NCBI GenBank assembly: GCA_045647025.1
Contig: JAZRLW010000110.1
Coordinates: forward strand, 1 to 47,156
Length of the DNA stretch: 47,156 nt
Direction of reading: 5' to 3'
From: Eubacteriales bacterium
GTDB taxonomy: Bacteria > Bacillota > Clostridia > Oscillospirales > UBA644
Of this stretch, positions 21,282 to 37,433 are shown one piece after another (position 1 is the first letter of the stretch; every line of letters starts with the position of its first letter). The position numbers and the translations under genes were made by a program. Under the pieces are notes generated by a model. The model was not told the origin of the DNA. It saw only the letters and a list, made by a program, of their open reading frames with translations, and made no database searches.

Positions 21282-21318
21282 GGACAAATCTCCTTTAGGG
21301 GTTGTTGTGTGTGGTATA

Positions 21319-21446: not shown

Positions 21447-21486
21447 ACAAAAAAAATGCCGTTCCTACTTGAACGGCATTTTTCTT
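21447..21486. terminator. Bidirectional intrinsic terminator (ends the ABC exporter transcript)
   Basis: Perfect 10-bp stem AATGCCGTTC/GAACGGCATT with a 6-nt loop, flanked by an A-run and a T-run. Confidence 0.8.
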
Positions 21487-23500
21487 ATTCTTTTTCAAAT
21501 CCGTGAGGTCTTTCTCCCCTTTTGCCAAAGGGTGGTGGAGGGAAGGGAAACTTCTTCTCCGAGACTAATGACTCATAAGGCTCAGAGGTATCTCTGTATC
21601 TCTTTGCCTGAGTATTAAAGAGCTCGGCGTACTTGCCGTTAAGCTGAATAAGCTCACGGTGGCTACCGATTTCTACTATCTCTCCGTTTTCAAGAACGAT
21701 TACGGTGTCGGCAATTGTGGCGCTTGAAAGCCTATGAGAAACGAATATTGTGGTCTTACTGCCCCTGAGCTCGTCAAATTGAGAGAATATCTCCTGCTCG
21801 GCCATGGGATCAAGAGATGCGGTGGGCTCGTCAAGAATCATTATATCCGAATCGCGGAAGAATGCTCTGGATACTGCAATCTTTTGCCACTGGCCTATGG
21901 AAAGCTCAAGGCCACCCTCCTCAAACTGTCTGGTGAGGGGAGTATCGTAAGAGTTTGATAGCTTTGCAATAAACTCGTTTGCACTACTCTTTTCAGATGC
22001 AGCAATAATGCCTTCGCGGTCGTCTTTTCGCTCTATCTGGCCAAAGCCTATATTTTCGCCCACGGTAAAAGCATACTTTCCGAAATCCTGGAAGATGATT
22101 CCAAAAACGCTGTATATATCTTCGGTGGCATACTCGCGAATATCGTGTCCGTCAAAGAGAATAACACCCTCCGTAGGGTCGTAAAGCCTGGTAAGTAATT
22201 TGAGCAGGGTGGTCTTTCCCGCCCCGTTCAGACCTACAAGAACGGCCGTTTCGCCGCCTTTTATGGTAAGGTTGATATTCTTAAGCACTTTTTTCTCGGT
22301 ACCGGGATAGCAGAAAGACACGTTCTTAAACTCTATAACGTGATTTATATGTCTTTCCACTCGTCTGGGCTGAGACAGGGAAGGAACTACGGTGGGATCT
22401 TCCTCCATAAAGGCTATCATGTTGTCTATAAAGAGGGTTCCCTCGTATATACCAGCTGAGGTATTCACTATATCGGACACCCCGCCCGAAATGGAAAATA
22501 ACGCGCCCGAATAAAGATTGAAGTCACCTACGGAAAGGATTCCATCAAAGATCCCTTTTGCGATAAGAACAAGTACGGAGCCGTTAACTCCGGTATGGAC
22601 TACATTAAGTGCCATTCCCCAGAAGCTTTCGCCGTATATGAGGCTCTTTATGCCCTTGAAGTAGTTATTAAATACCTCTTTATACTTTGCAATAAAGGTG
22701 TCGGCCAGATTGAAAAGCTTTATTTCCTTGACCATATCCTTGTTGACGATGAGGTTTGAGAAATAGTCCATTTGACGCCTGTCCTTTGAACGGCGACGGA
22801 CGTAACCGAACATCTTTTTCCTGTAATGATAATGGATAATGGCAGAGGGTATAGCCATTACAATAAGTACTGCTGGAGCCCAATTAAGAAATGCGCCAAG
22901 AATAACTATATAGCTGACCAGACTTATAAATGCGGAAACTATAGAGAAGGATGCCTGCAAAACACTTAAAGGACGGTTTCCCGCCTCTCTGTTTGCATTT
23001 TCAAGCTTGGAATAAAATTCGGGCAGGTCAAAGGACGCAAGGTCTATTGTCTTGGCCTTGTTCATGATCTTGAGTTTAATACTGTATACCAATACTTCGT
23101 TGGATATACGGTTTATCATATTATTGGCAGAATGAATAAGTCTTACAGCCAACTGATATCCAAGCTGTAACACCAAAAGTCCGCCAAGCACCCAGAAGTC
23201 GTCGCCTAACTGTCCTGTCGCGGCTAATGCCAGATTATCAAGAAGGGCCTTGGATATATATGAACCAATAACGGGAACTACACCGTTAAATATGGCCATA
23301 AATGTCATAAGCAAAAGTATCCAGGGTCTTGCATCCCAAACAAGCTTATAAATGTAAAGCAACCTGCGGGCAGTATCCTTAAGGCTTTTAAATATAAAGG
23401 GAATCCAATCCTTCAGCTTTTCGGGCTTTTGCACATGAACATCAGACCCTCTTGGATGGGGCATGCCCATACCGCCAAAGCCACCCATTCCTCCGTACAT
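21485..23500 (-). CDS. ABC exporter, fused permease and ATPase (type I half-transporter) with low-complexity tails
   Basis: Six-TM domain, Walker A GLNGAGKTT, signature LSIGQWQ and Walker B IMILDEPT. SD AAGGAG lies 7 nt upstream of the ATG. Confidence 0.9.
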   Translation of the reverse strand: MYGGMGGFGGMGMPHPRGSDVHVQKPEKLKDWIPFIFKSLKDTARRLLYIYKLVWDARPWILLLMTFMAIFNGVVPVIGSYISKALLDNLALAATGQLGDDFWVLGGLLVLQLGYQLAVRLIHSANNMINRISNEVLVYSIKLKIMNKAKTIDLASFDLPEFYSKLENANREAGNRPLSVLQASFSIVSAFISLVSYIVILGAFLNWAPAVLIVMAIPSAIIHYHYRKKMFGYVRRRSKDRRQMDYFSNLIVNKDMVKEIKLFNLADTFIAKYKEVFNNYFKGIKSLIYGESFWGMALNVVHTGVNGSVLVLIAKGIFDGILSVGDFNLYSGALFSISGGVSDIVNTSAGIYEGTLFIDNMIAFMEEDPTVVPSLSQPRRVERHINHVIEFKNVSFCYPGTEKKVLKNINLTIKGGETAVLVGLNGAGKTTLLKLLTRLYDPTEGVILFDGHDIREYATEDIYSVFGIIFQDFGKYAFTVGENIGFGQIERKDDREGIIAASEKSSANEFIAKLSNSYDTPLTRQFEEGGLELSIGQWQKIAVSRAFFRDSDIMILDEPTASLDPMAEQEIFSQFDELRGSKTTIFVSHRLSSATIADTVIVLENGEIVEIGSHRELIQLNGKYAELFNTQAKRYRDTSEPYESLVSEKKFPFPPPPFGKRGERPHGFEKE

Positions 23501-23556
23501 ATTTTCACTCCTTATTTAAATCAGAATAGCCGTAATAGTAGTACCAATCTACTAAA

Positions 23557-23596
23557 GGGGGCCGTCGCAAATCATATTTGCAACAGCCCCCTTTTT
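23557..23596. terminator. Long imperfect hairpin between the eight-gene operon and the ABC exporter (weak or leaky terminator)
   Basis: GGGGGC/GCCCCC outer stem with an inner TGCAAAT/ATTTGCA stem. On the coding (minus) strand only TTT follows; the T5 run is on the plus strand. Confidence 0.4.
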
Positions 23597-23618
23597 CAGA
23601 CACTTGTCTTTTATTTAA

Positions 23619-24623
23619 TTATTCTACAAGACCGCTTCGTTCAATACTCTGTACGAAATATCTCTGGCAGAACAAGAACACGAGAAGAAGGGGTGCGATG
23701 AGGAGCAGAGATGCAGTATCAAGGAGGGTCGCCTGCTGGAGAGCGTCGGCGGTGGTACTCTTTGTTACGTTCTTAATGGTATTGGTGAGTATGGGTAACT
23801 CAGAAATAAGCATATCGTTGTAGGTAGTATCCGTCCACTGCCATGTAAAGGCAAAGAGGAATACGGTGATCATCATGTTCATAGCGTTGGGAAGCATGAT
23901 GACGAAGAAGGTTTTAAGATGGCCTGCACCGTCTATGTAGGCGGAAGCTTCAAGTTCTTTAGGCATACCGCGGAAGAACTGACGCATCATGTAAATGTAA
24001 AGACCATTCTTAAGACCCATACCCGTGGCAGACATCAGTACCAAGGGCCAGAAGGTATTCAGCAGGTTGAAACCGAACATGTTGCTGAATATTTCGAACA
24101 AAGGAATGGTGATAGTCTGTGTGGGGATTATAAGGGTAAGTATAACACCAAAGAAGAGGACGTCGGAACCAAAGAACTTGAATCTCGCAAATCCGTAACC
24201 AACAAATGTGGAGATTGCAAGCTGGAAGACGGCAACCACCAAGGAGAGGATTGCAGTATAAAGCAATGCAACCCAATAGTCCATACTGAGAAGAGCCTTC
24301 TCAATAAAGTAGGTAGAACCTTCTCGGGGTATATACATAACCGTGGAGTCGGTAATATCATTGGTGCTCATGAAGGAAACGATGAGCTTTACAATGAAGG
24401 GGTACAGTATCATGAAAGAGATACCGAAGATGATTATAAAACGAAGAATTATCCAGCAGAATTTGCCAAGACCGTAGAGGTTAAGATTCTTTCTTCTCCA
24501 TCTTGCCCACTCCATATCGGTCATCTTCTTGGGCTTGATTCTGTCCCAGAAGCTGGGGTTTTCAACAGTAACAACCTCGCCGTTAGGGGTAATGATTTCT
24601 TTTTCTTTCTTGAAAATAGACAT
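23619..24623 (-). CDS. CUT1-type ABC importer permease (MalG-like), module B
   Basis: Six TM segments and the EAA loop LEASAYIDGAGHLKTFFVIMLP. The ATG at 24623 has SD GGAGG. Confidence 0.85.
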   Translation of the reverse strand: MSIFKKEKEIITPNGEVVTVENPSFWDRIKPKKMTDMEWARWRRKNLNLYGLGKFCWIILRFIIIFGISFMILYPFIVKLIVSFMSTNDITDSTVMYIPREGSTYFIEKALLSMDYWVALLYTAILSLVVAVFQLAISTFVGYGFARFKFFGSDVLFFGVILTLIIPTQTITIPLFEIFSNMFGFNLLNTFWPLVLMSATGMGLKNGLYIYMMRQFFRGMPKELEASAYIDGAGHLKTFFVIMLPNAMNMMITVFLFAFTWQWTDTTYNDMLISELPILTNTIKNVTKSTTADALQQATLLDTASLLLIAPLLLVFLFCQRYFVQSIERSGLVE

Positions 24624-24636
24624 TCTACTTACCTCC

Positions 24637-25596
24637 TTAATCTTGATATACGACAAGCTTCTTAACAAGAACCCAAGCTATAGCGACGAATGCAAGAACA
24701 ACGACGGTATATACCCAGGAAAGAGCGGAAGCAAGTTCGTAGGTTGCGGCGTTACCCATATATGTGTTGATATAAAGGATAGCGGCGTTATCGGACTTAA
24801 GGAAGAGGTCGATAACCGTGTAGATGAGGTTAACGAGAATAAGGGGAGAAATCATGGGGAAGGATATCTTCCAGAAAACTTCCCAACCTGTAGCACCCTC
24901 AACCTTTGCGGCTTCGTACATACTGATTGAAATACCCTGAAGACCCGAAAGGAATACCAGCATCTGAACACCGGAAGAGGTGATAACCGAGTACAGACCG
25001 TCAATGGCGCCCAAAACTATACCCGAAAGAGTGGGGTTATTAAGGGCGGAGGTGATAACCTCTCTGAGCTGGTTATAATTGAAGATGTTTGCGGCACCGG
25101 AGGCGCTGGCTCCACCTACCTCCAGCTTTTCGCCGGAGTTGTAGGTGTCGAGCATAGAGCTCATTTCTTCAAATTCTCTCATAATACCCGTAGAAATAAT
25201 AACGGGGATGAAGAATATAACACGGGCTACCGTTCTACCAAGGAACTTCTGGTTAAGAACGTTTGCCATAAAGAATGCGAAGATAATGATAACGAATATC
25301 TGGGGAATGAGGGACGTTACCGATTCGATAACGGTTCTCAGGAAGCCCTCTTCTACGAAGAGAGCCTGACGGTAGTTTTCCCAACCTACAAAAGAGGTCT
25401 GGAAACCTTTTCCCTTTACGATTTCGATTTCACTGAAGGAGTAAATAATAGACTGAACGAGCACGGGGATATACATTATTGCAAGACCGATTATGATAGG
25501 TAAGCAGAATACATATCCAAAAAGGCTGTTCTTTCTTTCGAGGGTCAGAAACGAAGCTTTTCTGGCCTTAACTGTTTTCTTTGCCTGTACGCTCAT
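24637..25596 (-). CDS. CUT1-type ABC importer permease (MalF-like), module B
   Basis: TM profile and the EAA loop YEAAKVEGATGWEVFWKISFP. Confidence 0.85.
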   Translation of the reverse strand: MSVQAKKTVKARKASFLTLERKNSLFGYVFCLPIIIGLAIMYIPVLVQSIIYSFSEIEIVKGKGFQTSFVGWENYRQALFVEEGFLRTVIESVTSLIPQIFVIIIFAFFMANVLNQKFLGRTVARVIFFIPVIISTGIMREFEEMSSMLDTYNSGEKLEVGGASASGAANIFNYNQLREVITSALNNPTLSGIVLGAIDGLYSVITSSGVQMLVFLSGLQGISISMYEAAKVEGATGWEVFWKISFPMISPLILVNLIYTVIDLFLKSDNAAILYINTYMGNAATYELASALSWVYTVVVLAFVAIAWVLVKKLVVYQD

Positions 25597-25611
25597 ATGT
25601 TTTTAACCCCC

Positions 25612-28509
25612 TTACTCAAAAATTACATAGTCTTTTGCAGGAACGGTAATTATTGTACCGTCAGCTGCAGCCAACTGAATATCAAAGGAATTGTAGTTTA
25701 CGTAAACTGTGTACTGATCACCATATACGGTCTTGTAAACGCTGTCTACCCAAACACGAGTATCTTCCTTAACTATCTTTCTACCTTCTCTGTAACCGGG
25801 ATCGCCGGGCTGGAGATAGGTAACCTCACCGCCTGCAATATAAACTTTTCTATCATAGGTAGAATAGCCTTCATGCTGGGTAATGGGAAGAGAAGCAACC
25901 TTATCGAGAACAACCTTAACGGTATTGTAAACCTCAAGAGCTGTGTCATAAGAGTTGTTATAGTTAAGAGAATACCAATTGGTAAATGCAGTGTTGTAGA
26001 GGATCGTATCTTCTTCACCCATCCAACGGAAGTATACGTTACTACCGGTTTCTATACAGTAAAGAATGAGATCTTCATAGTTTGCGTTGATATTGAAGGC
26101 CTCAGGCGCGTAATATACGTAGCCGTGAAGAACCATCTGGATGAAGGGTATTGATTCCTTGGAAGAGAGATATTCAGAAGAGCCCATGGGCATATTGAGA
26201 ATATGGTCTGCACTGTTCCAGGTGTAATCATTACCGTTATCAACCATAAGCTCGTAATCCTTAAATACTTCAAGAGCCTGGAGCTGATACTCGTAAGACT
26301 TGGTTCTGTTAACGTTACGGTTGGTCTTATAGTTGGAGTTGAGATATTCACCCATAGCGGCGAGAGATATCTGACCGTTACCGATAATCTTAGAGTAAGA
26401 AGCCTCAAAGTTTGCAGCCATCTCGGGAAGAATATCGGGAGAGATAATGGTCTTCTTGAAATCGTCGGTCTGAGCCAAGGAACCGGAAGCAGGGCTTCTC
26501 ATATTAACGGTGGCAAGACGCATATCAAGTCTACGGGCAGAATCCTGAGAGTAGTTAAATCCGTCTCTCACAGTATCTCTGTAAACGTACTGCATATCAG
26601 CGTTGGGGAAGAATCCGTAATCGTTTTCAGTACAGTACTCAACAAGAGATGTAAGTTCTTTCTTGCTGCCGAGAAGGTCGAGAAGTTCAACCTCGTTGTA
26701 AGCGGTATTGTAGAAACCGCCGTTAGACCAGTAGAGATAACGAGCGTTTACGTTCTCAATACCGTCAGCATTAAGCTTTTCAAGAACTTCAAGTATATCG
26801 GAATAAGTGGTGAGAGCCTTTTTCTTTACGGTGGGAACACCGGCTACGGATTCGGTCTTCTCAAAGCTTCCGATAAAGTCGATATAGAGCTGGGTAGTTG
26901 CATCAGAAATGGTTTCTGCGGGAAGTTTACCGGCTTCTATAAGATAATTTCTGTATTCTTCAGCGTACTCAGAATAGGTCTTTCCACCCTCACCGAACAT
27001 ATAGCGAACTACAAAGTTTGCTATGGTTTCGTCCTTTGCAAGAACAACACCGGAGCCGGAGGAGTCGGTAGAAGCTCCGCCTACGGACTGACCGCCGGAA
27101 TAGGTACGGTAATCACGCTCGGAATATACAAGATCAAAGTTAAGAGAAGCAACAGGATTGCTTACCTCGTTATAGGGTCTTGCGGAAATGAATGCCTGGG
27201 CAGCGCCATCCTCAAGAACCATCATCATGCTTCCGCCCAACTTACCGTAGGTACCTTCATCGGAATAGTCACCTCTGTCGTATATACCGAAGCCCGAGAG
27301 AACGGGAGCGGACTGGCCGGAAAGAATACTGGGGTTAAAGGTTTCGTCACTGCCGTAAACGCGGGCAGAGTAAGCATCAGTGGTCATGTTACCAAAGAGA
27401 GGCATAACGGAACCGGAGCCGTCGGGAAGGATCATGTACTTAGTATCATCGGATGTATCTGCTGCCTCAACTGCGCCGAATGCTCTGTAGAAGTATATCT
27501 TATAGAGCTTCTGCTTTTCGGGAGCAAGTATCAACGAAGTATCAACGTTAAGGGTAAGACCCTTTTCGTCAAGGCTGATATCTACGGGAATGGTGTACAT
27601 AACAGCACGTTCAGGACCGGAGTAGTCAACCTTCTCCATTTCCTGCTTCAGCATTTCAACGGTAAAGCCGATAGCTGTAAGAGCGTTCTTAACGTTATTC
27701 TTCTGCTTGGAGGTCAAGCTACGACCGATATAAAGTGCTTCGTAGTCAAGAGTGGGATAGTATGCAAGATACTGTTCCTTAACCTCGAGAGAAAGGGAAT
27801 CAGGTTCGTTAAGATTGTAGGAAGTCTGGATAGCCTTTTTGTAGGTCTTTGCAGCTCCCGCATCGGGAATCTTATCTATCTGCTCCATTATCCAGTTGTA
27901 GGTGCTGACTGTAAGAACGGGAGGAACGAGTTCCTTATCGGGGTCATTACCGATGGTGTAGATGACTCTGATGGTATTATCGTCCATCTTCTTTATATAG
28001 AAGTTCTTATCAAGATAGCAGTTTTCATAGAAGTTAAACTCAAATCTCTTGTTGAGGGAGTCATAAGCTTCTATGGTAAGGGGAGCGTGGAGCTTTCCAC
28101 GCTTATCATCAGCCGTGGTGCTGAGTTCTTCACCGTCAGCCTTTACAGCGTTAGTGGGGTCGGAGTGGTAAACCATTCCGGTTTCCTTGTCATATACGGC
28201 GATGGAAGTATCATCAAAGTCAAAATAAAGAATATAATTGTCGTTTTCAATTACGTTTTTCATTCCGACGATACCAAGCCTCTTGTTTACGTCGTTCTTT
28301 CCAGAACCGCCCTTTACGGTATCATAATCGTCAGGGTCTATTACGTTTTCAAGGCTGCCGTCAAGGAGTTCAAGAATGTGAGCCTCTCTCTCTTCATCCG
28401 AAACATAGCCGGAAGAAGTAGTTGCCTTATCGCAAGATGAGAGGAGTACCGATAATGCAGCAAAGAGAACCGCAAAAACGGTGATCATTAAAAACTTTTT
28501 GATCTTCAT
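25612..28509 (-). CDS. 965-aa lipoprotein of unknown function (possibly DUF5696-like)
   Basis: Signal peptide with lipobox LLSSC, an SD and an uninterrupted 965-codon ORF. I found no solute-binding-protein, nucleotide-binding-domain or clear catalytic motif. The DUF5696 assignment rests on remembered gene-neighbourhood patterns, not a search. Confidence 0.55.
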   Translation of the reverse strand: MKIKKFLMITVFAVLFAALSVLLSSCDKATTSSGYVSDEEREAHILELLDGSLENVIDPDDYDTVKGGSGKNDVNKRLGIVGMKNVIENDNYILYFDFDDTSIAVYDKETGMVYHSDPTNAVKADGEELSTTADDKRGKLHAPLTIEAYDSLNKRFEFNFYENCYLDKNFYIKKMDDNTIRVIYTIGNDPDKELVPPVLTVSTYNWIMEQIDKIPDAGAAKTYKKAIQTSYNLNEPDSLSLEVKEQYLAYYPTLDYEALYIGRSLTSKQKNNVKNALTAIGFTVEMLKQEMEKVDYSGPERAVMYTIPVDISLDEKGLTLNVDTSLILAPEKQKLYKIYFYRAFGAVEAADTSDDTKYMILPDGSGSVMPLFGNMTTDAYSARVYGSDETFNPSILSGQSAPVLSGFGIYDRGDYSDEGTYGKLGGSMMMVLEDGAAQAFISARPYNEVSNPVASLNFDLVYSERDYRTYSGGQSVGGASTDSSGSGVVLAKDETIANFVVRYMFGEGGKTYSEYAEEYRNYLIEAGKLPAETISDATTQLYIDFIGSFEKTESVAGVPTVKKKALTTYSDILEVLEKLNADGIENVNARYLYWSNGGFYNTAYNEVELLDLLGSKKELTSLVEYCTENDYGFFPNADMQYVYRDTVRDGFNYSQDSARRLDMRLATVNMRSPASGSLAQTDDFKKTIISPDILPEMAANFEASYSKIIGNGQISLAAMGEYLNSNYKTNRNVNRTKSYEYQLQALEVFKDYELMVDNGNDYTWNSADHILNMPMGSSEYLSSKESIPFIQMVLHGYVYYAPEAFNINANYEDLILYCIETGSNVYFRWMGEEDTILYNTAFTNWYSLNYNNSYDTALEVYNTVKVVLDKVASLPITQHEGYSTYDRKVYIAGGEVTYLQPGDPGYREGRKIVKEDTRVWVDSVYKTVYGDQYTVYVNYNSFDIQLAAADGTIITVPAKDYVIFE

Positions 28510-28524
28510 AATCTTTCCTCCTCC

Positions 28525-29205
28525 TTATTCATTTATTCTGAACGAGATTTCCGTCCAGAGCGAAGAAGCAAAGCCGGTTACCTGCTGTACAAGGAAAACG
28601 ATAAGCACGATGATAAACGCAATAATCAGTATACCAACTATTGAAAGAACCGTCGTAGCAATACCCTTTTTAACCGAGTACTGATGAGTGGTTATCATTC
28701 CGAGGAAGATCTCCATATAAGCAATAACTACGCCCATAGAATTTACGGTAGTAAATACGCTGGCGGATTCCAAGGGAAGATAATGGCTAAGAGGTACGGC
28801 AATAAAGTTACAAAGTGTAAGGGGAAGAGTACCTACTGCTGTGGCAACGAAAATGTCACCAAACTTACCGTCGCCGTCCATAAGGGAGGAGAAGCACCAG
28901 TTAGCAACAGTCCACAGAATGTAGGGAAGAATAGCAATACCAATCTCAAGGATAACGTTCAGGCTGAGCTGTTCAGCTACGCTTGTGTACATATATCCGA
29001 GAAGCTGTCTCTTAAATACTGCAGAGAAGGCGAGAAGAATCATGAGCAACACTGCGGTATTGACAGATTTTCTCTTGGGATCGTTTTTCAGATCGTAAAA
29101 CCCATCGAAGGGATGAACGAGAACGTAAAACGCATAAGGAAGCTTTTTGAAAGCATCAACAATACAATCGCCGGTTGTCTTAAATACCTTTTTTACTGTT
29201 GTCAT
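28525..29205 (-). CDS. Yip1-family polytopic membrane protein
   Basis: Five predicted TM helices after a cytoplasmic N-terminus (HPFDGFYDLKNDPKRK). The start overlaps the stop of the NHL gene (TAATG). Confidence 0.6.
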   Translation of the reverse strand: MTTVKKVFKTTGDCIVDAFKKLPYAFYVLVHPFDGFYDLKNDPKRKSVNTAVLLMILLAFSAVFKRQLLGYMYTSVAEQLSLNVILEIGIAILPYILWTVANWCFSSLMDGDGKFGDIFVATAVGTLPLTLCNFIAVPLSHYLPLESASVFTTVNSMGVVIAYMEIFLGMITTHQYSVKKGIATTVLSIVGILIIAFIIVLIVFLVQQVTGFASSLWTEISFRINE

Positions 29206-30854
29206 TATCTTCTACCTCCTTTCTTTTTTCTTCTCTTACTCTTTCTTGTCTTAATCAAGAAGTACAGAACGAACAAACCAACTACGAGAACGATTGCACT
29301 GATAGCAATAAGAGCGAAGTTCTCTTCCATAGAAGCTCTCTGGAGCTCTTTGAAAGCCTGAGAGTAATAGGTGGTTTCGTTTGCAACTTCGAAGTAATCA
29401 AGAGCATTCTGATAATGATCAAGTCTTGAATCATCGTAATACAAGGTCATAGCGGTACGCATTTCAGCCTTACCGAGACCGATGTAAGCGATATGCATAT
29501 TAGAGTTATAAGCTATAACGTCTTTCCAATACTGGGAAGAAACGTCGTATTTACCTGCGATATGAGAATCGAGAGCATTAAATACTGTCTTTGCATAGTC
29601 CGTCATTTCATAAATAACGAGAGACTTGCTTCCAACGTCAGAAACAACAATGTGGTCGCCATTAATTACCATCGAGTAAGGAGTGGTTGTTCTACCCTGC
29701 TGGCTACCCTTACCGCCACTGATGAAGATAAGGTTACAGTCGTTATCGTAAACGAAGAATCGACCGCTTCTCTGGTCGAGAATAACGAAACATCCATTAT
29801 CGTAAGCCGCTGCGTCTACTATCTGAGGCGTGGTCTCAACAGTGAAATCCAAGTCGCCGATTACGGGGAAGATACCGTTTCTACGGAGAATATCTATACC
29901 CGAAGTGTTAAGCTTGGAAACAGGTGAAGTATCGGGCTCGCTCTTGCTTACAGCAGCGGATACGAGGCTTGCAGAGTCTATTGTAGAAATAGTAACATAC
30001 ATGAATCCTCTGTAGTCCTGAGCGATATTATTATATTCGGTAGGAACGTAGGTGACGAGCTTCTTTCTCTGCTCATCGGTAGCCAACATTCTCCAGAACC
30101 AATCCATGGGGTTCATTTCAACCTTAGGAGCGCCTACGAAGTTGGTAAACATACCGGTGTTGTCAAGCTCCATTATACCGCGGTTAACGGCATAAGCGAT
30201 TACCTGCATACCGCCGGCACGGTCAACTATGAGCTTCAGAGGCTTGAATATGTAGCTTTTACCAAGAACGGATACCTTTACAGACTGGTATACCTGCTTT
30301 ACGTAACCATTGATATCACATACGACTATACGTCTGTTATTGGTATCTGCTACGTAGATAAGACCATCTTCGGTAACGTATATACCCGAAGGATGATTAA
30401 AGCTATAAGCATTAGCTGCGGTCATTTCGGGGTCGATGGAAGGATTGCCGAGAGCGTCGTACTTGTTCTTATCAAGCTCGGGAATGACGTATCCGGGATC
30501 CTCTGCGGTAGCGGGAGTATTCTTTAAGCTTCTGATGGTCTGCGTTACCTTGTAGGCTTCGTCGAGAACGATAATCTGGTTACCGCCTCTGTCGAGAACA
30601 TACACATAGCCGTTTCTCTCAAAGAGGTCAACGGGCTCGTAGGTAAGGATATCAGCGCCAATATCCTCTGCGCCGAGAGTCTTGATGTGAGCGTAGGATA
30701 CGGGAGCATCTACGGGTTCGCCGTAGAAGTTATAAATATAGGAGTCTACGATTTCGTCATTGGTCGTTACGGCCGCCATAGGCAGAACGCAAAGAGGAAG
30801 AATAACGAGCATCGCAAGAATAAGGGCGAAAGCCGATTTAAATATGTTTCTCAT
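29205..30854 (-). CDS. Secreted NHL-repeat beta-propeller protein with a C-terminal TM anchor and polybasic tail
   Basis: Signal peptide and NHL-like blades (YVYVLDRGGNQIIVLD, LIYVADTNNRRIVVCD, CFVILDQRSGRFFVYD, HIVVSDVGSKSLVIYE). C-terminus reads LIAISAIVLVVGLFVLYFLIKTRKSKRRKKKGGRR. Confidence 0.7.
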   Translation of the reverse strand: MRNIFKSAFALILAMLVILPLCVLPMAAVTTNDEIVDSYIYNFYGEPVDAPVSYAHIKTLGAEDIGADILTYEPVDLFERNGYVYVLDRGGNQIIVLDEAYKVTQTIRSLKNTPATAEDPGYVIPELDKNKYDALGNPSIDPEMTAANAYSFNHPSGIYVTEDGLIYVADTNNRRIVVCDINGYVKQVYQSVKVSVLGKSYIFKPLKLIVDRAGGMQVIAYAVNRGIMELDNTGMFTNFVGAPKVEMNPMDWFWRMLATDEQRKKLVTYVPTEYNNIAQDYRGFMYVTISTIDSASLVSAAVSKSEPDTSPVSKLNTSGIDILRRNGIFPVIGDLDFTVETTPQIVDAAAYDNGCFVILDQRSGRFFVYDNDCNLIFISGGKGSQQGRTTTPYSMVINGDHIVVSDVGSKSLVIYEMTDYAKTVFNALDSHIAGKYDVSSQYWKDVIAYNSNMHIAYIGLGKAEMRTAMTLYYDDSRLDHYQNALDYFEVANETTYYSQAFKELQRASMEENFALIAISAIVLVVGLFVLYFLIKTRKSKRRKKKGGRR

Positions 30855-30866
30855 CTTTCCGCCTCC

Positions 30867-31820
30867 TTAGTCTTTCATACCCGATGTTGCCATCGTTTCA
30901 ACTATGTTACTCTGTGTTATAACGAAGACTATAACGGGAACGGACATCATTACTATCTGAATTGCCATGGAAACGCCCGTTCTGGCAATACCTGCGCCGG
31001 AGATCTGACCCAACGCATAAGAAAGGGTTTTAAGTTCTTCGCGGTAGATGTAAATACTTGAGCCCTGATTCCAGAAGTTCTGAACGGCGAAAACGATAAG
31101 AGTCAGCCATCCGGGCTTGATGGAAGGCATCAGTATGTTAAAGAATATCCTGAATTCTCCTGCACCGTCGATACGGGCCGCCTCAAGAACGGTATCAGGG
31201 AACTGGTCCATATACTGCTTGATGAGGTAGAGGGAGAAGGAAGAACCGAGGGCGGGAATAAGAATAGCGTAGTATGTATCGATCCAGCCGAGGTTTGCCA
31301 TTATAATATAGTTGGCAATTGTAGATGCGGTGGAGGTGAACATAAGGGACATAGAGGAGATCTGGAAGATAAACTCACGGCCCTTGAACTGACGCTTGGA
31401 GAGGGGGTACGCAGCCAAAGATGCGGAAACAACGTTGAAGGTTGTACCCACCAAGGTAATAAAGATGGTGTTAAAGAGGTATTTGGAGAAAGGCACCAAA
31501 GAGTTGGACATTATGGTGAACAAATCCAAATAGTTCTTAAAGGTAGGATTCTTAACAATAAGATTCGGGGGGAAAAGGAATATTTCGTTCATGGGCTTAA
31601 GAGAGTTACTGATGGAGTACACCAGAGGGAAGCCCATAAAGCATCCGCCTATAAGAAGACAAGTAAAGAGGAAAAGGTCACCGGCCAAACCTCTGTTTAC
31701 CCTTTTATACTTAAAAAGACGTTTCTTTTTACGGTATATGGGATTGCCGTCAGCATCAACCTGAGGCTTTTTGGCGAAAATGGATTTCTTCTGCGCCAAA
31801 ACAGCTGTATTATCAGACAT
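30867..31820 (-). CDS. CUT1-type ABC importer permease (MalG-like), module A
   Basis: EAA loop LEAARIDGAGEFRIFFNILMP and six TM segments. Confidence 0.85.
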   Translation of the reverse strand: MSDNTAVLAQKKSIFAKKPQVDADGNPIYRKKKRLFKYKRVNRGLAGDLFLFTCLLIGGCFMGFPLVYSISNSLKPMNEIFLFPPNLIVKNPTFKNYLDLFTIMSNSLVPFSKYLFNTIFITLVGTTFNVVSASLAAYPLSKRQFKGREFIFQISSMSLMFTSTASTIANYIIMANLGWIDTYYAILIPALGSSFSLYLIKQYMDQFPDTVLEAARIDGAGEFRIFFNILMPSIKPGWLTLIVFAVQNFWNQGSSIYIYREELKTLSYALGQISGAGIARTGVSMAIQIVMMSVPVIVFVITQSNIVETMATSGMKD

Positions 31821-31837
31821 TCGTTTTTCCTCCTTTC

Positions 31838-32752
31838 CTACTTACCTATCTTACTGAGTATAAACTTAACGACTCTGTTTGAAACGTACGACAGAATAAA
31901 CAGTATCGTAGCAATTGCGGACGCGTAACCCATTTCAAAACGGGTTCCGCCGTAGTCGTCAAGGTGATGGGATATGGTATGCAATTCGTAGTTTTGGGTA
32001 GGACTACCGAATACGCTTGAAATGATACCGCCGATGCCGAAGGAGTTGGTGATGGTAAGAATAGCACCGAACATAAGCTGACCTCTCATGGAGGGGAGAG
32101 TTATGAAGTAGAGTTCCTGCCATCTATTCTTTATACCGTCAACTGCGCCTGCCTCATAGAGGGACTTATCAACGGTCTGAAGACCGGCTATCATGGTAAG
32201 GAATGAGGTACCAAGGGACTGCCAAAGTATTACTATAATACATATGGGCCACATAAGGTCTGCATCCTTGGTGAACTGAAGGGGTTCGGTTATAAGACCC
32301 CAGTCAAGGAACCAAGCGTTAAGGTAACCGTTTGCGTCACCTGTAAAGAAGAGTTTCCAGAAGGTGGTAAGACCGCCGGCAAGAGAAGGCGCATAGAAGA
32401 GAAGCGTCAGGAATGCACGGGGCTTTGCAGGAACCTCATTAATAAGCCATGCAAAAGCAAAGCAAAGCAAATAGCTACAGGGACCGGTAATGATTGCAAG
32501 AATCATTGTGTTCTCAAAGGCGAGAGAGAAGATGTCGTCATTGAGGAAGAGCTTAGAATAGTTATCAAATCCAACGAAGTCGGGCATTTCCAACATGTTG
32601 AAGTTTGTAAAACTCAAGCCGAGAGATACGAAAACAGGGAGAACCGTAAACGTAAAGAAGGTGATGAGGTAGGGACCAAGGAAGACGATAAGGTCTAAGT
32701 TCTCATATTTCTTCTGTCTTGAAAGGCTCGAAACTTTTTGCTTTTTAGCCAT
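31838..32752 (-). CDS. CUT1-type ABC importer permease (MalF-like), module A
   Basis: EAA loop YEAGAVDGIKNRWQELYFITLP and six TM segments. Confidence 0.85.
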   Translation of the reverse strand: MAKKQKVSSLSRQKKYENLDLIVFLGPYLITFFTFTVLPVFVSLGLSFTNFNMLEMPDFVGFDNYSKLFLNDDIFSLAFENTMILAIITGPCSYLLCFAFAWLINEVPAKPRAFLTLLFYAPSLAGGLTTFWKLFFTGDANGYLNAWFLDWGLITEPLQFTKDADLMWPICIIVILWQSLGTSFLTMIAGLQTVDKSLYEAGAVDGIKNRWQELYFITLPSMRGQLMFGAILTITNSFGIGGIISSVFGSPTQNYELHTISHHLDDYGGTRFEMGYASAIATILFILSYVSNRVVKFILSKIGK

Positions 32753-32767
32753 CTATGATCACCCTCC

Positions 32768-35695
32768 TTAGTCTACATCAACCATATCGAGGGGAAGACC
32801 CAGCTCGGTACGCTTGTGAATGATTTCTTCATTAATGTACATAACGTTGTTAAGTATTGCTTCACGGGGATCGTCAAAGTCAACAACAACGCTGGTGAAT
32901 GCGAAGCCTACGTATCTTGAAGTGTAATAACCTGCGATAACTTCGGGATAGGGGATAAGGCTTGCAAACTGTTCTTCAATAGCGTCAACCTCAGACGCAG
33001 TCCAGTTCATAGCGAGAACTGCATTAACGTTTGCAGAGTTGTAACGGCCTGCGGCACCAAGAACGGATTCAATTTCGCGGCCGAAGTCGGTCTGAATCTC
33101 ATCACTAGTCCACCAGTCAATAAATGTCCAACCGTTTTCCTTTTCCTTTGCGGTCTGGAGAAGAACGGTACACTTGAAGGTTGCGATATTTGACTTATCA
33201 ATGCCACCGTCTTCTCTAACCGTTCCGGGAACGGTGGTGAAGGTCCAAAGACCCTTGATTTCGGGAGCAAAGATTGACATCTTATTGTAGAAGTTGTAAA
33301 GGTCGGTATCGCCTATAGGCATACTGCCCTGTCTGAAACGGTTTTCAAAGTCGAATTCGATTGAAAGGCCGTAGTTGGTATAGAGCTCGGTATGACGGAT
33401 AAAGGCGTCGATAGCAACGGGAGAGTCGATATCGGAAGCCTGACCTCTATACTTATAAAGAGAACCGCCTGCCTGATAGAGGAGGGTGTTATACTCGGGA
33501 GGAGCATACTCCATATATCTCTTCTGCATTACAGGGATAACCTCATAAACCTCATCCCAGGTATTGGGAACTGCAAGGCCAAGGCTTTCCATGATGTCGC
33601 TTCTATAGAAGAGAACCTGGAAGTTCATGGTTTCGGGCATACCGTAAACATGTTTTACTACGTTGCCGTTTTCATCGTAAACTTCAGCAGACATAGCTTC
33701 AGTAGCGTTCTTTATAAATCTTTCGGATACCATCTGCTCAAAGCCTTCGTAACCGTCAAGAGGTTCAAGAGCGTTACGGGTGGAGTAGTTGATAACTTCT
33801 TCTGTACCTATACCCAAAACAACGTCGGGACCCTTACCTGCAAGAATGGAGGGAAGGAGCGCGCCCGAGGGAACGAGAGACATTGAAAGGTTTATCTCTT
33901 TTTCGGGAATGAAAGAACGGTCGATAAGCTGACGAAGAACCTGAGCCTGGTCACGGGCGGACATGGTCCACACGGTAGCGGTTTCGGTATATTCAGCGCC
34001 GTTGGAAGAAGAGATGCTGTTGAAATCGGTAAAGAATGAAGAGAAGAACATCTTTACGTTAAACCAAAGAGAATCAAACACACCGGCTTCTGCAGCAGGA
34101 GCTTCGTAATTTTCTTCAGCTATGATAAAGTAGTCGACTTCAAGGGGAAGGGAGCGGATATCGAGCAACCACGAACCAAGATTTGTTATACAATTTTTAA
34201 ATGCCGAATATTCGGAAGCGATACTGTCGGGATTCTCATAAAGAGTAATAAGAGTATTGTATATGTTCTTAACCAAAGCAGTATACTGACCGTTCTCACC
34301 GAGTATGTTGAGAAGCTCGTCATGAATCTTTCTCAGAATATCGGCCTGAGCCTTAAGGTCAGAAATAACTTCGGGAATGATTTCATCAAACTCGTAATCT
34401 CTGTACTTGTCGGGAGAAGGACCGGTAACCATCAGAATCTTCTGAGAGTCGACGTTCAAATTGGCTATAACAGCGGTAACAGCATTGATGATATCTGCCA
34501 TATCGCCGTAAACAGCCTCAAATCTTACGGTGTTTTCGCCTTCTTCAAAGTAGAAGAGAAGGGGCTGATTGTATTCATCGGTAGGAGTTACTATCTGCCA
34601 GTCATCACTAAAGCCTATCTTGATCTTGGAAGCTTCTTCGAACTGAACCTTTCCGTTAACCGTTATCTCACGGCTTACGAAGCTTCCGTTCAAAGTGTTC
34701 TGACGAGCTCTGAAGATGATCTTGTAAAGACCTGCGGCAGGAACATCAACCTTGTATTCGATCCACTGACCCGAAACACTCCATCTGGGAGTACCGGAGG
34801 AGTTACCACCCATAGAGTTGAGCTTAATAGTATCAACACTGGCGGGCTCGGTAGCGGCAGAGGCTCTATCGTAAGAAGCAAAAAGAGTGGGGTCATTCTT
34901 TCCGTAGGGATATTCTGCCTGATACTTTGCGATAAGCTGATCGCCGCCGGTCTGATAAACCAGATTATCAAGCATGAATTCGCCGAAGGAAATAGGATCC
35001 TTGTCGCCGTAAAGGTAAACGGCGGAGAAAGCAACAGGCTCTCTGAGGGACTCTATTCTTACAACGTTAGTACCCTTTTCAAGGTAGAACTTGAGGGGAT
35101 AGTCGTAAGAAGCGGATGCATCCTCAAAAGCTGCGCCGTAGATCCAATAGGGATTCTCTACCTGCTCGCGACGGGTTTCGTTACCGTAAGCATCCCTGGT
35201 AAAGAAGCTATCGAAATCCCTGAGGTCTTCTACATTGTCCTTGTAGATACGGTCGAGGGTAGCGGCACGGGCTTCAACGAACTGAAGCTCTCCGTTTATG
35301 TAAATATTTCTTTCAATGGCAGAACCCTTACCCTTGACGGGGTAGTAGTCAACGCCCAGTGAATAAAGACCGGTTGCGGGAACGTTTACTATGAATTCCA
35401 CGTAACCGTCTTCCTGAGTGATCAGCACATTGTCCTTGCCGTCAACCGTTCCGTAGCTGTAATTTTCACCTGCGGAGGGATTGGAAAGGTCAAAATAGAC
35501 TGTTTCATCAGGGATTGCTGCTCTGGCATAATCCTCCAGGAACGCGCCGAAGGTTCCGTCCACGTAAGTGGGAATGAAGGGAACGTCGGATGCACTGGAT
35601 TCATTGCCGCTTGAGTTTGCAAAAGTAATAACGGCCGTGAGCTGAAGCATTGCTATCAAAATGCAGACAACCGTCAAAACTTTGTTCTTGCGCAC
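32768..35695 (-). CDS. 975-aa extracellular protein: two tandem CBM-like beta-sandwich repeats, a helical linker and a family-1 solute-binding domain
   Basis: GTG start with SD GGAAGGTG and a signal peptide without a lipobox. Internal duplication: VEFIVNVPATGLYSLGV...IYINGELQFVEA...PLKFYLEKGTNVVRIE versus IEYKVDVPAAGLYKIIF...ITVNGKVQFEEA...PLLFYFEEGENTVRFE. The C-terminal roughly 400 aa are LplA/SBP_bac_1-like. Confidence 0.8.
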   Translation of the reverse strand: MRKNKVLTVVCILIAMLQLTAVITFANSSGNESSASDVPFIPTYVDGTFGAFLEDYARAAIPDETVYFDLSNPSAGENYSYGTVDGKDNVLITQEDGYVEFIVNVPATGLYSLGVDYYPVKGKGSAIERNIYINGELQFVEARAATLDRIYKDNVEDLRDFDSFFTRDAYGNETRREQVENPYWIYGAAFEDASASYDYPLKFYLEKGTNVVRIESLREPVAFSAVYLYGDKDPISFGEFMLDNLVYQTGGDQLIAKYQAEYPYGKNDPTLFASYDRASAATEPASVDTIKLNSMGGNSSGTPRWSVSGQWIEYKVDVPAAGLYKIIFRARQNTLNGSFVSREITVNGKVQFEEASKIKIGFSDDWQIVTPTDEYNQPLLFYFEEGENTVRFEAVYGDMADIINAVTAVIANLNVDSQKILMVTGPSPDKYRDYEFDEIIPEVISDLKAQADILRKIHDELLNILGENGQYTALVKNIYNTLITLYENPDSIASEYSAFKNCITNLGSWLLDIRSLPLEVDYFIIAEENYEAPAAEAGVFDSLWFNVKMFFSSFFTDFNSISSSNGAEYTETATVWTMSARDQAQVLRQLIDRSFIPEKEINLSMSLVPSGALLPSILAGKGPDVVLGIGTEEVINYSTRNALEPLDGYEGFEQMVSERFIKNATEAMSAEVYDENGNVVKHVYGMPETMNFQVLFYRSDIMESLGLAVPNTWDEVYEVIPVMQKRYMEYAPPEYNTLLYQAGGSLYKYRGQASDIDSPVAIDAFIRHTELYTNYGLSIEFDFENRFRQGSMPIGDTDLYNFYNKMSIFAPEIKGLWTFTTVPGTVREDGGIDKSNIATFKCTVLLQTAKEKENGWTFIDWWTSDEIQTDFGREIESVLGAAGRYNSANVNAVLAMNWTASEVDAIEEQFASLIPYPEVIAGYYTSRYVGFAFTSVVVDFDDPREAILNNVMYINEEIIHKRTELGLPLDMVDVD

Positions 35696-35963
35696 TGCAA
35701 TACACCTTCCTTTTCTGTCGTTTTACCGATTCGTTTTGCTCTGTGGAATCGGTATTTTTTGGTTCGGTACGCTTTGTTGCACGTTAAGGAAATAAAACAC
35801 GTAAAACCTAATTTCGGAGAATAAAAAACCCGTCAAAACGGTACACTTCCGCTTTGAACTTGGCACTTTTATGATCACCGGAGGTCAAGCAATGTCTTTC
35901 CTTGGCGATTTTTCGATAACCGCGCAGGGTAAAACATAGCCTTCCCCCTTTGCAGTTATATAT

Positions 35964-35992
35964 ATTATAATACTTTTTGGCCGAAAAGTCAA
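35964..35992 (-). promoter_or_regulatory. Sigma-A promoter of the eight-gene ABC-like operon
   Basis: Minus strand reads TTGACT (35992-35987), 17-nt spacer, TATAAT (35969-35964). It implies a leader of about 260 nt. Confidence 0.6.
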
Positions 35993-36084
35993 CAACCCGC
36001 AGGTTGAGAGATTTTACAAGAATGTGTATTTATGTTGCCGCTTGTGCAACATTGCCAAAAACGTCACCCTGAATACATCAAGAT

Positions 36085-36100
36085 TGTGTAATTTTACACA
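36085..36100. promoter_or_regulatory. Perfect 7-2-7 dyad TGTGTAA-TT-TTACACA (candidate operator or activator site)
   Basis: Read directly from the sequence. It lies about 95 nt upstream of the -35 of the operon promoter. A second dyad, ATGTTGC-N7-GCAACAT, lies at 36032-36052. Confidence 0.3.
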
Positions 36101-36132
36101 TAGAAATGTACCATTTGTAATGCGTGCATAAC

Positions 36133-36162
36133 AAAACGGACACAATATATTGTGTCCGTTTT
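36133..36162. terminator. Bidirectional intrinsic terminator
   Basis: AAAACGGACACAAT/ATTGTGTCCGTTTT perfect palindrome (about 13 bp) with A/T runs on both sides. Confidence 0.7.
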
Positions 36163-36386
36163 GATAAATATTGGGTTTTTATCTATATATTGATGCCGCC
36201 AAACAAATTGAACTTTTTTGTCTTGTGCAAAATGACCAAAAATTATCTTTCAAAAATACTTTACAATCATTTCGCAAAACCACCGCAAATTGTGGAAAAA
36301 CACCCTTGTTTTCCTATCACGAGCAAAAGATTTTTTGGCAATATATACATCTTTTTTGACATTTTTGAAACTAAAAGAGCCGCTCT

Positions 36387-37388
36387 CTACTCCCACACAC
36401 CAAGCTTTACCAGCTTCGCATGAACAACCACTCGAACGTCCTTATCGTAAGACTTACAAGTGGACAAAGTGAGTATCCTATCGTCGGCGGTAAACTCAAA
36501 TTTTTCAAAAGCCGCTATCTCGTTTTTGTTCTGCAGAGAATTGCAAAATTCAACAAACACTACCGGATCCGAAAAGGCAGTTCGGATATAATTATACATA
36601 GAGGCAGTCTCTGCCTCCACACTGGTCTCATACCAAGCAAAAATCTGCCATACGGTATCTTCGTTAACAGTTTTAACATATACGTAATGATTGGATCTAT
36701 CATTATACCAGCTCTTTTTAACATCGAGGTACTTCAGCCCACCAAACATATTGTCACTTCGAGCGTGGCCATAAAGTATAGTGTTGTAGTTGGAAGACAA
36801 CTGCTCGGCGTCGTTTCTGTAATCTACAAACACCCAGCCGTTTATATTCTCTTCTTTGTCAAAATTATGGCTGAGATAATACTCGTTATCCCCGCTGTAA
36901 ACTATAGGGAGATCTATGGGCAACCCGGCAACCTTCCCCGTAGAATCGGAGAAATTAAACCAACCCACGGTATCCCCGTTGCGTTGTTTTACAGTATCGA
37001 GAGGCGCCTGCAAGAACTCAACCGTCTCTCCCACCTCATCATACACTATCCTAAATGTACGACGAGGTGTTTCATCCTCATCGGAAGACACCTGTCCTTC
37101 GGAAGAGTGCCCCTCATCCTCTTTTTTATCGTCGGGCAAGGATGGAGCAAGAATAACGTCCTCATTATATTCAAGACGCGCATCCTGAAATTCACTTACA
37201 ACTTTGTCCGTAGCCGCATTTTCTACCAGATCCTTCACAATGTTATACGCAGAAAAAAGGAATACGGAAGCACAAACAGCAAGAACAAAAAACGAGATGA
37301 CCTTATGCCGGGGCTTTTTTCTTGTGTCAGCAGATGGCGACGCAACGTCAATACGCTGCTCGGGCTTATTAGCTTTCATGTCCGGCAT
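36387..37388 (-). CDS. srtB: Class B sortase (N-terminal TM anchor, acidic linker)
   Basis: DNEYYLSHNF, NTILYGH (catalytic His), TLSTC (catalytic Cys) and DVRVVVHAKL (catalytic Arg). The ATG at 37388 has better SD spacing than the one at 37397. Confidence 0.8.
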   Translation of the reverse strand: MPDMKANKPEQRIDVASPSADTRKKPRHKVISFFVLAVCASVFLFSAYNIVKDLVENAATDKVVSEFQDARLEYNEDVILAPSLPDDKKEDEGHSSEGQVSSDEDETPRRTFRIVYDEVGETVEFLQAPLDTVKQRNGDTVGWFNFSDSTGKVAGLPIDLPIVYSGDNEYYLSHNFDKEENINGWVFVDYRNDAEQLSSNYNTILYGHARSDNMFGGLKYLDVKKSWYNDRSNHYVYVKTVNEDTVWQIFAWYETSVEAETASMYNYIRTAFSDPVVFVEFCNSLQNKNEIAAFEKFEFTADDRILTLSTCKSYDKDVRVVVHAKLVKLGVWE

Positions 37389-37433
37389 AAAGGTCATCCT
37401 TTCTTGAAAAATTTTCAGTTGTAAAAGGCAAAA

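Follow-up and report, generated by a model that had tools for sequence, protein, structure and literature searches.

Contig JAZRLW010000110.1, from a Eubacteriales bacterium of the GTDB lineage Oscillospirales UBA644 (assembly GCA_045647025.1), was analysed over a stretch of 47,156 nt, here called the window. Positions 23619-35695 carry, on the minus strand, eight genes for a giant substrate-binding protein (SBP), two permeases (P1a and P1b), an NHL-repeat protein, a Yip1-family membrane protein, a DUF5696 lipoprotein and two further permeases (P2a and P2b), in this order of transcription. We estimate at about 0.55 the probability that the eight products work together as a single integrated, extracytoplasmic machine with which Gram-positive bacteria capture and import glycans. 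This reading is favored because the parts are inherited together, their order is fixed, the NHL and Yip1 proteins occur as a fusion, and the divergence of the components is correlated.

The eight open reading frames (ORFs) are 975, 304, 317, 549, 226, 965, 319 and 334 aa long, and successive genes are separated by 15, 17, 12, -1, 15, 15 and 13 nt, the negative value being a 1-nt overlap at 29205 between the stop codon of the NHL gene and the start codon of the Yip1 gene. An AGGAGG-like Shine-Dalgarno sequence precedes every one of the eight starts. For P2b, the ATG at 24623 was chosen over an upstream TTG at 24668, because the resulting length of 334 aa equals that of P2b called in the 95%-identical locus L001; this choice also gives the 13-nt spacer. 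The GC content of the locus is similar to that of the remainder of the window. The coordinates, spacings, Shine-Dalgarno sequences, gene order and product types all agree with a preliminary description made from the letters alone, and Pfam confirms the SBP, permease, NHL, Yip1 and DUF5696 assignments.

The gene set is found far beyond this organism. A profile search yielded 3,745 DUF5696 clusters at 50% identity with E <= 1e-30, and a genome scan restricted to one genome per species found relatives in at least 480 genomes, from which 77 loci were fetched. Loci are designated by numbers with the prefix L. In L001 to L008 the eight-gene order is the same, and it was found with unrelated flanks around DUF5696 homologues that are 95%, 45%, 38%, 24% and 21-23% identical to that of the window. 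Among the 63 loci that contain all the parts, the order is kept in 62, and the remaining one (L062) is circularly permuted. Such recurrence means that the gene set is not a product of chance. The order holds wherever the contig reaches far enough, and two further distant homologues also adjoin NHL-Yip1 and permease genes. All of the about 90 DUF5696 genes examined are flanked by module partners where the contig allows. The carriers belong to both Clostridia and Bacilli and include Oscillospirales-like metagenome-assembled genomes (MAGs), Ruminococcaceae, Lachnospiraceae, Herbinix, Cellulosilyticaceae, Paenibacillus, Cohnella, Alkalihalobacillus and Bacillus. The DUF5696/Yip1/large-SBP neighborhoods that had initially been mentioned for other Firmicutes are thus real and very common. 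Within each of the two clades into which the loci fall, one including the window and the other its sister, the pairwise divergence of seven components is strongly correlated (r 0.67-0.98), which fits inheritance as one unit, with a contribution of species phylogeny to the correlation. One Herbinix sp. MAG (L_E1_T20_C_bin.107) has two diverged modules, L050 and L080, with NHL and Yip1 separate in one and fused in the other; two paralogous modules in one genome are typical of nutrient-uptake loci.

The NHL-repeat protein (29205..30854; this and the following coordinates of module genes refer to the minus strand) has one repeat above threshold in Pfam NHL (E 5e-10). Five further NHL-like blades can be recognized by eye at aa ~73-97, 205-231, 277-300, 345-370 and 392-416, making six in all, and NCBIfam gives weak ScyF/ScyE-type matches. 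In this protein, a signal peptide is followed by the blades, a helical region, a C-terminal transmembrane helix and a basic tail; the transmembrane segments lie at aa 11-29 and 516-534, and the helical region shows faint TPR matches in homologues. The 226-aa Yip1-family protein (28525..29205) is polytopic, with several hydrophobic segments in its hydropathy profile, and matches Pfam PF04893 over positions 2-172 of 173 (E 4e-14, 53.4 bits against a cut-off of 28.6). The two proteins are fused into one of 685-751 aa in 18 fetched loci from Paenibacillus, Bacillales, Herbinix and some Clostridia, and the fusion is also seen in L005 and L089. In the fused proteins, the NHL-protein profile is matched in full by the N-terminal part and the Yip1 profile in full by the C-terminal part; as a full-length "Rosetta-stone" fusion, this indicates that the putative propeller and Yip1 act together as a single unit of the membrane. 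In the window, where the two are separate, the transmembrane helix would tie the putative extracellular propeller to the Yip1 membrane domain. Loss of synteny between NHL/Yip1 and the transporters in related genomes would have argued against a common locus, and the genes proved strictly syntenic. The preliminary description saw no precedent for this pair in characterized sugar importers, and none exists among sugar importers; among ABC transporters, however, YknW, a member of the Yip1 family, modulates how the YknXYZ exporter assembles (PMC4887032). YknWXYZ of Bacillus, which consists of YknW, the membrane fusion protein YknX and the MacB-type YknYZ, likewise encodes a Yip1-family membrane protein together with an ABC transporter. 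It is, however, a MacB-type peptide-toxin exporter with its own ATPase and lacks an NHL propeller, an SBP or a glycosidase-like partner, whereas the module has BPD_transp_1 type I importer permeases. Only the Yip1 component is common to both, and the relationship is one of analogy, not membership.

The DUF5696 lipoprotein (25612..28509) matches PF18952 over profile positions 8-576 of 612 (E 2e-123, 413 bits against a cut-off of 25.6). Its lipobox, LSSC with Cys26, is conserved in the window's clade. Neither Pfam nor NCBIfam detects a glycoside hydrolase signature in it, as had been noted at the outset, and the Pfam families Glyco_hydro_129 (PF11308) and Glyco_hydro_101 give no match even at E <= 5. 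Its AlphaFold2 (AF2) model (pLDDT 82, pTM 0.82) nevertheless has a GH129/GH101-like three-domain fold, so that the lipoprotein is no longer simply "unknown", as it had been called. Foldseek matches this model to ZgGH129/DagB (5opq, 8rzk; E 5e-29, probability 1.00) and to the GH129 enzyme NagBb (5wzn; E 6e-22, TM-score 0.71 relative to the target), and more weakly to GH101, GH36, GH31 and GH13. A profile of 36 DUF5696 members searched against PDB sequences reaches ZgGH129 at E 4e-7 and NagBb at E 3.5e-4; a profile of the barrel only gives no match in the same sequences. From the fold and profile matches together, DUF5696 is a remote homologue of the GH129/GH101 alpha-glycosidase superfamily. 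Enzymes of this superfamily consist of an N-terminal beta-sandwich, a TIM barrel and an immunoglobulin-like domain at the C-terminus (PMC5698469, PMC8106489). DUF5696 shares with NagBb (5WZN), ZgGH129/DagB (5OPQ, 8RZK), EngBF and SpGH101 the succession of N-terminal beta-sandwich, (beta/alpha)8 barrel and C-terminal beta-sandwich (TM-score 0.67-0.74 relative to the target), as well as the local motifs GNDY/GGNDF and VNYN/ANFS. It differs from them in having only ~10% identity, in a ~100-aa helical insertion in the N-terminal domain, and in being a lipoprotein always encoded with ABC permeases.

A further difference concerns the catalytic center. The catalytic residue common to NagBb and ZgGH129 is the Asp that ends barrel strand 4 (D435 and D486, respectively; PMC5698469). 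For its position in DUF5696, a local filter-free hmmsearch alignment over beta4-beta5 was made to one Pfam GH129 member, and in this weak alignment the nucleophile falls on residue 718, which is not conserved and is Ala in the window protein. The GH129 motif "FVDCDATGEVYDDY" pairs with DUF5696 "ISLGxIGxxLNSNY", and GH129 "GSEGGNDF" with DUF5696 "MVxxGNDY". Across 109 non-redundant DUF5696 members, no conserved carboxylate was found at positions 711-722; Asp occupies position 718 in 6 of 69 proteins from the window's clade and 27 of 40 from its sister clade, and the positions near the expected acid/base (757, 761 and 779) are also variable. On the other hand, both clades show little or no variation at D363, D388, N596, R735, N760, Y762, H795, N806, E820 and H879; of these, D363 lies in a PDGSG loop and D388 in a YGxD motif. 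In ZgGH129, Asp202 from the N-terminal domain of the partner monomer is essential, and only one of the two catalytic residues of NagBb is conserved (PMC5698469); a relocated catalytic center is therefore conceivable in DUF5696. The GH129 member used for the comparison was found by tblastn of a 138-aa ZgGH129 fragment against plasmids; another search with this fragment had yielded a fragment of 82 aa and nothing more. It is a 774-aa protein of the Bacillus mycoides plasmid pl546, a 546-kb conjugative plasmid, encoded at L086:3356-5680 (CP067054.1, QWI73231.1) and annotated "hypothetical protein", and it matches Glyco_hydro_129 at E 1e-114. Its catalytic domain gave no alignment to any solved chain, and hhalign between DUF5696 and this protein aligned the C-terminal sandwich only.

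The giant SBP (32768..35695) matches Pfam SBP_bac_1 (E 1.3e-16, aa 598-868) and SBP_bac_8 (E 1.9e-12). Each match exceeds the gathering score, and together they span aa 598-873. An N-terminal signal or anchor, two beta-sandwiches resembling carbohydrate-binding modules (CBMs) of families 35 and 6, and a helical stalk precede this C-terminal SBP_bac_1 domain. With an alignment of 32 homologues, AF2 modelled aa 30-570 at a pLDDT of 89 as two beta-sandwiches followed by a long helical bundle. The first sandwich is placed at aa ~75-229 (35009..35473) by AF2 secondary structure and Foldseek, which matches it to 2vzp, 2w47 and 2w1w with TM-scores of 0.65-0.69 relative to the target; the second is placed at aa ~254-395 (34511..34936) by AF2 and Foldseek with weak sequence matches; and the predicted stalk at aa ~397-514 (34154..34507) corresponds to high-pLDDT helices at model residues 368-485. 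For the N-terminus as a whole, Foldseek retrieves CBM35/CBM6 modules and CBM35-bearing enzymes, isolated CBMs giving target-relative TM-scores of 0.57-0.69. By sequence, CBM_6 stays below threshold (E 0.011, 16.5 bits against a cut-off of 28.9) and phmmer gives weak matches to CBM35 structures (E ~0.06), while PF16990 is present in two homologues of the giant SBP. The N-terminus is thus modelled as two CBM35/6-like modules on a helical stalk. The best solved relatives of the C-terminal ~400 aa are Lin1841 (5YSB; E 2e-9), the sophoro-oligosaccharide SBP of Listeria innocua, and the cluster-D SBPs RafE and CpMnBP1 (to 5e-5). These are lipoproteins of ~400 aa without CBM modules or a stalk, and the similarity is too low for their ligand specificity to be transferred.

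Pfam BPD_transp_1 is found in all four permeases, P1a (31838..32752), P1b (30867..31820), P2a (24637..25596) and P2b (23619..24623). P1a and P2a are MalF/UgpA-like and P1b and P2b MalG/UgpE-like, and the best NCBIfam similarities, to UgpA/UgpE, MalG and GlcT/GlcU, are those of CUT1 importers. EAA loops, already reported in the preliminary description, are present in all four, at aa 200, 213, 228 and 225 in the order of transcription, and each pair therefore needs an ABC ATPase. The two pairs are mutually only 20-30% identical, so their duplication is old, not recent. In one Clostridiaceae MAG (L057), a third permease pair of 340 and 330 aa directly follows P2b. An SBP with SBP_bac_1/8 domains and a MalF/MalG-like pair with EAA loops, two of the defining parts of a CUT1 importer, are thus both present, the latter twice. 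A Walker A motif was sought in the eight module proteins and none was found; as had been proposed, the domain and motif searches support a CUT1-type importer locus without its own ATPase. The broader statement that no ATPase is encoded holds inside the interval, whereas an exporter with a nucleotide-binding domain (NBD) lies 118 nt downstream, outside the module. In Bacillota, several CUT1 importers commonly draw on one multitask ATPase of the MsmX type, whose gene lies elsewhere (PMC7658222, PMC5730181). With AraNPQ, GanSPQ and YesOPQ of B. subtilis, which are served by MsmX, and with the MalEFGK2 paradigm, the module shares the SBP_bac_1 domain and MalF/MalG-type pairs with EAA loops; the order of an SBP followed by two permeases and an ATPase outside the operon are likewise common features (PMC7658222, PMC5730181). 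It differs from these importers in having two permease pairs within one fixed operon, an SBP that is no lipoprotein, reaches ~1000 aa and includes a helical stalk besides two CBM35/6-like modules, and a putative NHL propeller, a Yip1 protein and DUF5696, which are without counterpart in any characterized sugar importer.

The genes around the module differ between the two clades. In the sister clade, where DUF5696 has 21-32% identity to the window protein, 30 loci have a ninth gene, SBP2, either directly upstream of the giant SBP gene or directly downstream of the last permease gene (examples in L050-L085, such as L052:~1000-2500 and L075:14456-15889). SBP2 is an ordinary SBP_bac_1 protein of 445-594 aa and a lipoprotein in 31 of 31 cases. 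Its profile matches no ORF of the window, and a second SBP there was accordingly rejected; indeed, SBP2 is absent from the window's whole clade. Sister-clade modules adjoin GH10, GH3, GH67, GH43 and AraC genes, a glucuronoxylan-oligosaccharide type of set, in Lachnospiraceae and Herbinix; LacI and GH38, plus GH35, GH20 or a histidine kinase with an AraC response regulator, in Paenibacillus; and GH95, GH38, GH123, ROK, SIS and AraC in some Clostridia. Cultivable carriers with the module beside LacI and GH38 include Paenibacillus baekrokdamisoli KCTC 33723 and P. dendrobii. Such catabolic neighbors are hallmarks of oligosaccharide uptake with lineage-dependent specificity. The 115 flanking genes of the window's clade are mostly those for sortase, Mur ligase, AsnA, YpsA, transketolase and an ABC exporter, with GH95 only twice, and beside the module in the window no regulator or recognized polysaccharide-degrading enzyme was found. 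The module resembles Gram-positive polysaccharide utilization loci (PULs) and, by analogy, the Sus-like systems of Bacteroidota in grouping a transporter with surface modules that bind glycans and with a surface lipoprotein of glycosidase fold, and sister-clade modules adjoin intracellular glycoside hydrolases (GHs) and regulators as Gram-positive PULs do. It differs in lacking a regulator or recognized carbohydrate-active enzyme (CAZyme) in the window and in its fixed rather than mix-and-match composition; in addition, the enzyme-like part may be non-catalytic, and ABC permeases replace the TonB-dependent SusC.

Three large products of the locus are extracytoplasmic and have folds or modules linked to carbohydrates. 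If the eight products do form one machine, the CBM-bearing SBP would take hold of complex glycans or large oligosaccharides on the cell surface and deliver them to the first permease pair. DUF5696 would act at the second pair, where it may either trim the bound glycan at a non-canonical site (D363/D388/E820) or pass the substrate on as a glycosidase-derived binding protein; within this reading, catalytic and non-catalytic roles stand at roughly even odds. The NHL-Yip1 unit could serve as a membrane scaffold that joins the two transporters and the two large ectoproteins, with YknW as an analogue, and ATP hydrolysis would be supplied in trans to both pairs by an MsmX-type multitask ATPase. The substrate would depend on the lineage, being xylan-derived in some Lachnospiraceae and of a mannose/N-glycan type in Paenibacillus. 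In a bolder form, which we consider conceivable but unlikely, the products would assemble into an ABC-importer supercomplex of a previously unrecognized kind, in which the NHL-Yip1 scaffold holds two type I permease dimers, a DUF5696 protein that has lost the canonical GH129 nucleophile is the docking receptor or processing gate of one and the stalked CBM-SBP sits on the other, as a functional counterpart, in Gram-positive bacteria, of Sus-type surface machines.

Several observations weigh against the integrated glycan-import machine. Unlike the usual SBPs of Gram-positive bacteria, the giant SBP has no lipobox, a motif missing in 64 of 68 family members, and its N-terminus offers only a hydrophobic segment, so that its retention at the surface by a membrane tether is presumed. 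No MalK/MsmX-type NBD is encoded in the locus or the 47-kb window, nor within +/-10 kb of related modules, and no ABC ATPase is found inside any module; the few NBD genes near the latter encode 226-305-aa proteins of adjacent different transporters, or MsbA-like exporters. The module in the window's clade has almost no CAZyme or regulator neighbors, and the nutrient-uptake reading is therefore extrapolated there from the sister clade. The presence of SBP2 in the sister clade means that DUF5696 is not required there as a receptor. Finally, the same conserved DUF5696 residues occur in lineages with apparently different substrates, judged by their xylan-type or N-glycan-type neighbors, and with such unchanging residues a shared ligand or partner is no less plausible than an enzyme for one particular substrate.

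The last point also bears on the proposal that DUF5696 is an active extracellular glycosidase with relocated catalytic residues (D363/D388 and E820), which would make the module, with its enzyme and two importers, the minimal core of a Gram-positive PUL and DUF5696 the founder of a new GH family. We treat this as a serious but doubtful alternative. The GH129/GH101/GH36/GH31 fold and the family profile that reaches ZgGH129 speak for it, as does an invariant polar set across 109 members, which is the pattern expected of an active site; catalytic residues do move in the superfamily, Asp202 of ZgGH129 coming from the other monomer (PMC5698469). It has to contend, however, with a beta4 segment that carries no conserved carboxylate at the GH129 nucleophile, with Ala at 718 in the window protein, with the variation near the expected acid/base, and with the fact that the same invariant residues stand beside both xylan-type and N-glycan-type gene sets. 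That constancy despite differing catabolic flanks would suit a common ligand, and a common ligand could be expected if the module served the cell's own envelope by recycling or remodelling a surface glycopolymer, such as a wall polysaccharide, a teichoic-acid-like polymer or capsule fragments. The neighbors in the window's clade, with sortases in 16 loci, a Mur ligase in 9, an MsbA-like exporter in 9, AsnA, transketolase, and few CAZymes or regulators, point in the same direction. Nevertheless, an envelope role appears improbable, since sister-clade modules are embedded among catabolic genes that include intracellular GHs and regulators of the LacI, AraC or two-component type, one genome has two diverged copies, the CBM35/6-like modules and the CUT1 SBP point to an exogenous glycan, and no module protein has a sortase signal.

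Two other explanations would dissolve the machine or give it another task. The preliminary description divided the locus into two parallel modules with an NHL/Yip1 add-on and put the 965-aa lipoprotein in the SBP position of the second. DUF5696 is indeed encoded directly before P2a, often with translational coupling, in all related loci; but an ordinary SBP2 exists in the sister-clade operon, so DUF5696 is not simply the SBP of a second module. In the extreme form of this division, two ordinary independent CUT1 importers would lie side by side with unrelated NHL, Yip1 and DUF5696 genes between them, and it is true that each permease pair looks complete alone and that the sister clade has two SBPs for two pairs. 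Even so, the order is kept at 21-25% DUF5696 identity across two classes with unrelated flanks, the genes stand 12-17 nt apart or, in one case, overlap by 1 nt, 18 loci have NHL joined to Yip1 in a single protein, component divergence is correlated, and ~90 DUF5696 genes all lie beside these partners where the contig allows. Independent importers are therefore very unlikely, and the fixed order, the fusion and the correlated divergence argue for one integrated eight-part unit rather than two modules and an accessory. Hardly any weight is given to a transporter-like sensor that would detect an extracellular glycan and signal without bulk import. The absence of an ATPase from the module, a Yip1 accessory with no known catalytic role, and the two-component systems adjoining some Paenibacillus copies could be read in its favor, but no component has a cytoplasmic output domain, the intact EAA loops of the four permeases imply coupling to NBDs, and most loci have no regulators.

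Transcription of the operon may start from a sigma-70-type promoter-like site, TTGACT-17-TATAAT, on the minus strand at 35964..35992. The single promoter that had been placed there is present as an 11/12 consensus match, but it is a pattern match only and no proof: it has the top minus-strand score in 21000-37500 in a tie with a site at 21347-21319 inside the parB ORF, and the scan as a whole shows no clear excess of promoter-like sites (38 found, 27 +/- 5.5 in shuffles). The leader of ~270 nt between this site and the first gene (35696-35963) contains a terminator-like hairpin followed by T6 at 35833..35857 (minus strand, -10.4 kcal/mol), which is kept in the ~90%-identical loci L001 and L010 and may be a transcription attenuator or an antitermination target. 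A riboswitch in the leader was rejected, since no Rfam family matched it. Directly 3' of P2b, a 19-bp hairpin at 23554..23594 (minus strand, -35.6 kcal/mol) is the likely operon terminator.

Past this hairpin, 118 nt 3' of the module, lies the gene for an MsbA/Sav1866-type ABC half-exporter with an NBD (21485-23500, minus strand). A homologue occupies the same position in 9 loci of the window's clade and not elsewhere. It was rejected as the missing ATPase, being of this half-exporter type, beyond a strong terminator and absent from most related loci, and is probably a neighbor conserved by descent, outside the module. On the other side, two sortase-domain genes lie directly upstream on the same strand at 36387-37397 and 37434-38969, the second also with Big_2 domains, and a sortase gene is found upstream of the module in 16 loci of the clade. 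An LPXTG-type sorting signal was sought at the C-termini of all eight module proteins and none was found; the sortases are accordingly treated as neighbors without a link to the module. An ORF opposite the first sortase gene (36420-37424, plus strand) has no Pfam match. Opposite the DUF5696 gene, a 745-aa ORF runs at 26203-28440 (plus strand). Many loci have an ORF of 400-1057 aa on the strand opposite DUF5696, in the same relative frame, and in the 91%-identical L009 the ORF has only 428 aa; it was rejected as a gene and regarded as a shadow ORF arising from codon usage. In six loci from rumen and gut Clostridia (L014, L018, L021, L022, L028 and L049), a secreted Ala- and helix-rich protein of 1277-1455 aa without LPXTG is encoded on the same strand just 3' of the module.

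The remainder of the window consists of housekeeping genes, including those for PrmC, a two-component pair, FakA, Asp23, RNase Y, SPFH proteins, ParB, PAP2 and transketolase. The aromatic amino-acid operon at 12359-20464 (plus strand) is complete, from DAHP synthase to a shikimate dehydrogenase/kinase fusion and a type II dehydroquinase, and the McsA/McsB/ClpC stress operon at 41903-46437 (plus strand) belongs to the same ordinary context. The window is ~90-91% identical in nucleotide sequence to contigs of two MAGs of uncultured "Eubacteriales bacterium".

The uptake of complex glycans in Gram-positive bacteria of gut, rumen and soil is usually pictured as the work of free enzymes and simple three-gene ABC importers. 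All the domain families of the module are catalogued, but their combination, with two permease pairs, a stalked CBM-SBP, a GH129-like surface protein that lacks a conserved nucleophile and NHL-Yip1, is without counterpart among characterized sugar importers. A literature search found no paper on DUF5696/PF18952, on a "YIP1 family protein" in this context, on CBM35 together with an SBP, or on this gene combination; the chance that the 965-aa protein would turn out to be a well-characterized glycosidase, raised at the outset, has thus not been borne out. The module is widespread, with ~3,700 DUF5696 clusters and at least 480 species-representative genomes, and no part of it has been studied. If its products do form one complex, this would explain how large oligosaccharides are captured and taken up by Bacillota, which have no outer membrane; it would also assign a function to DUF5696 and to Yip1 proteins of bacteria and define either a new GH family or a glycosidase-derived receptor. 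As the module lies beside xylan or N-glycan catabolic genes in cultivable Paenibacillus and Lachnospiraceae, the proposal can be tested, and it is relevant to the use of gut fiber and host glycans.

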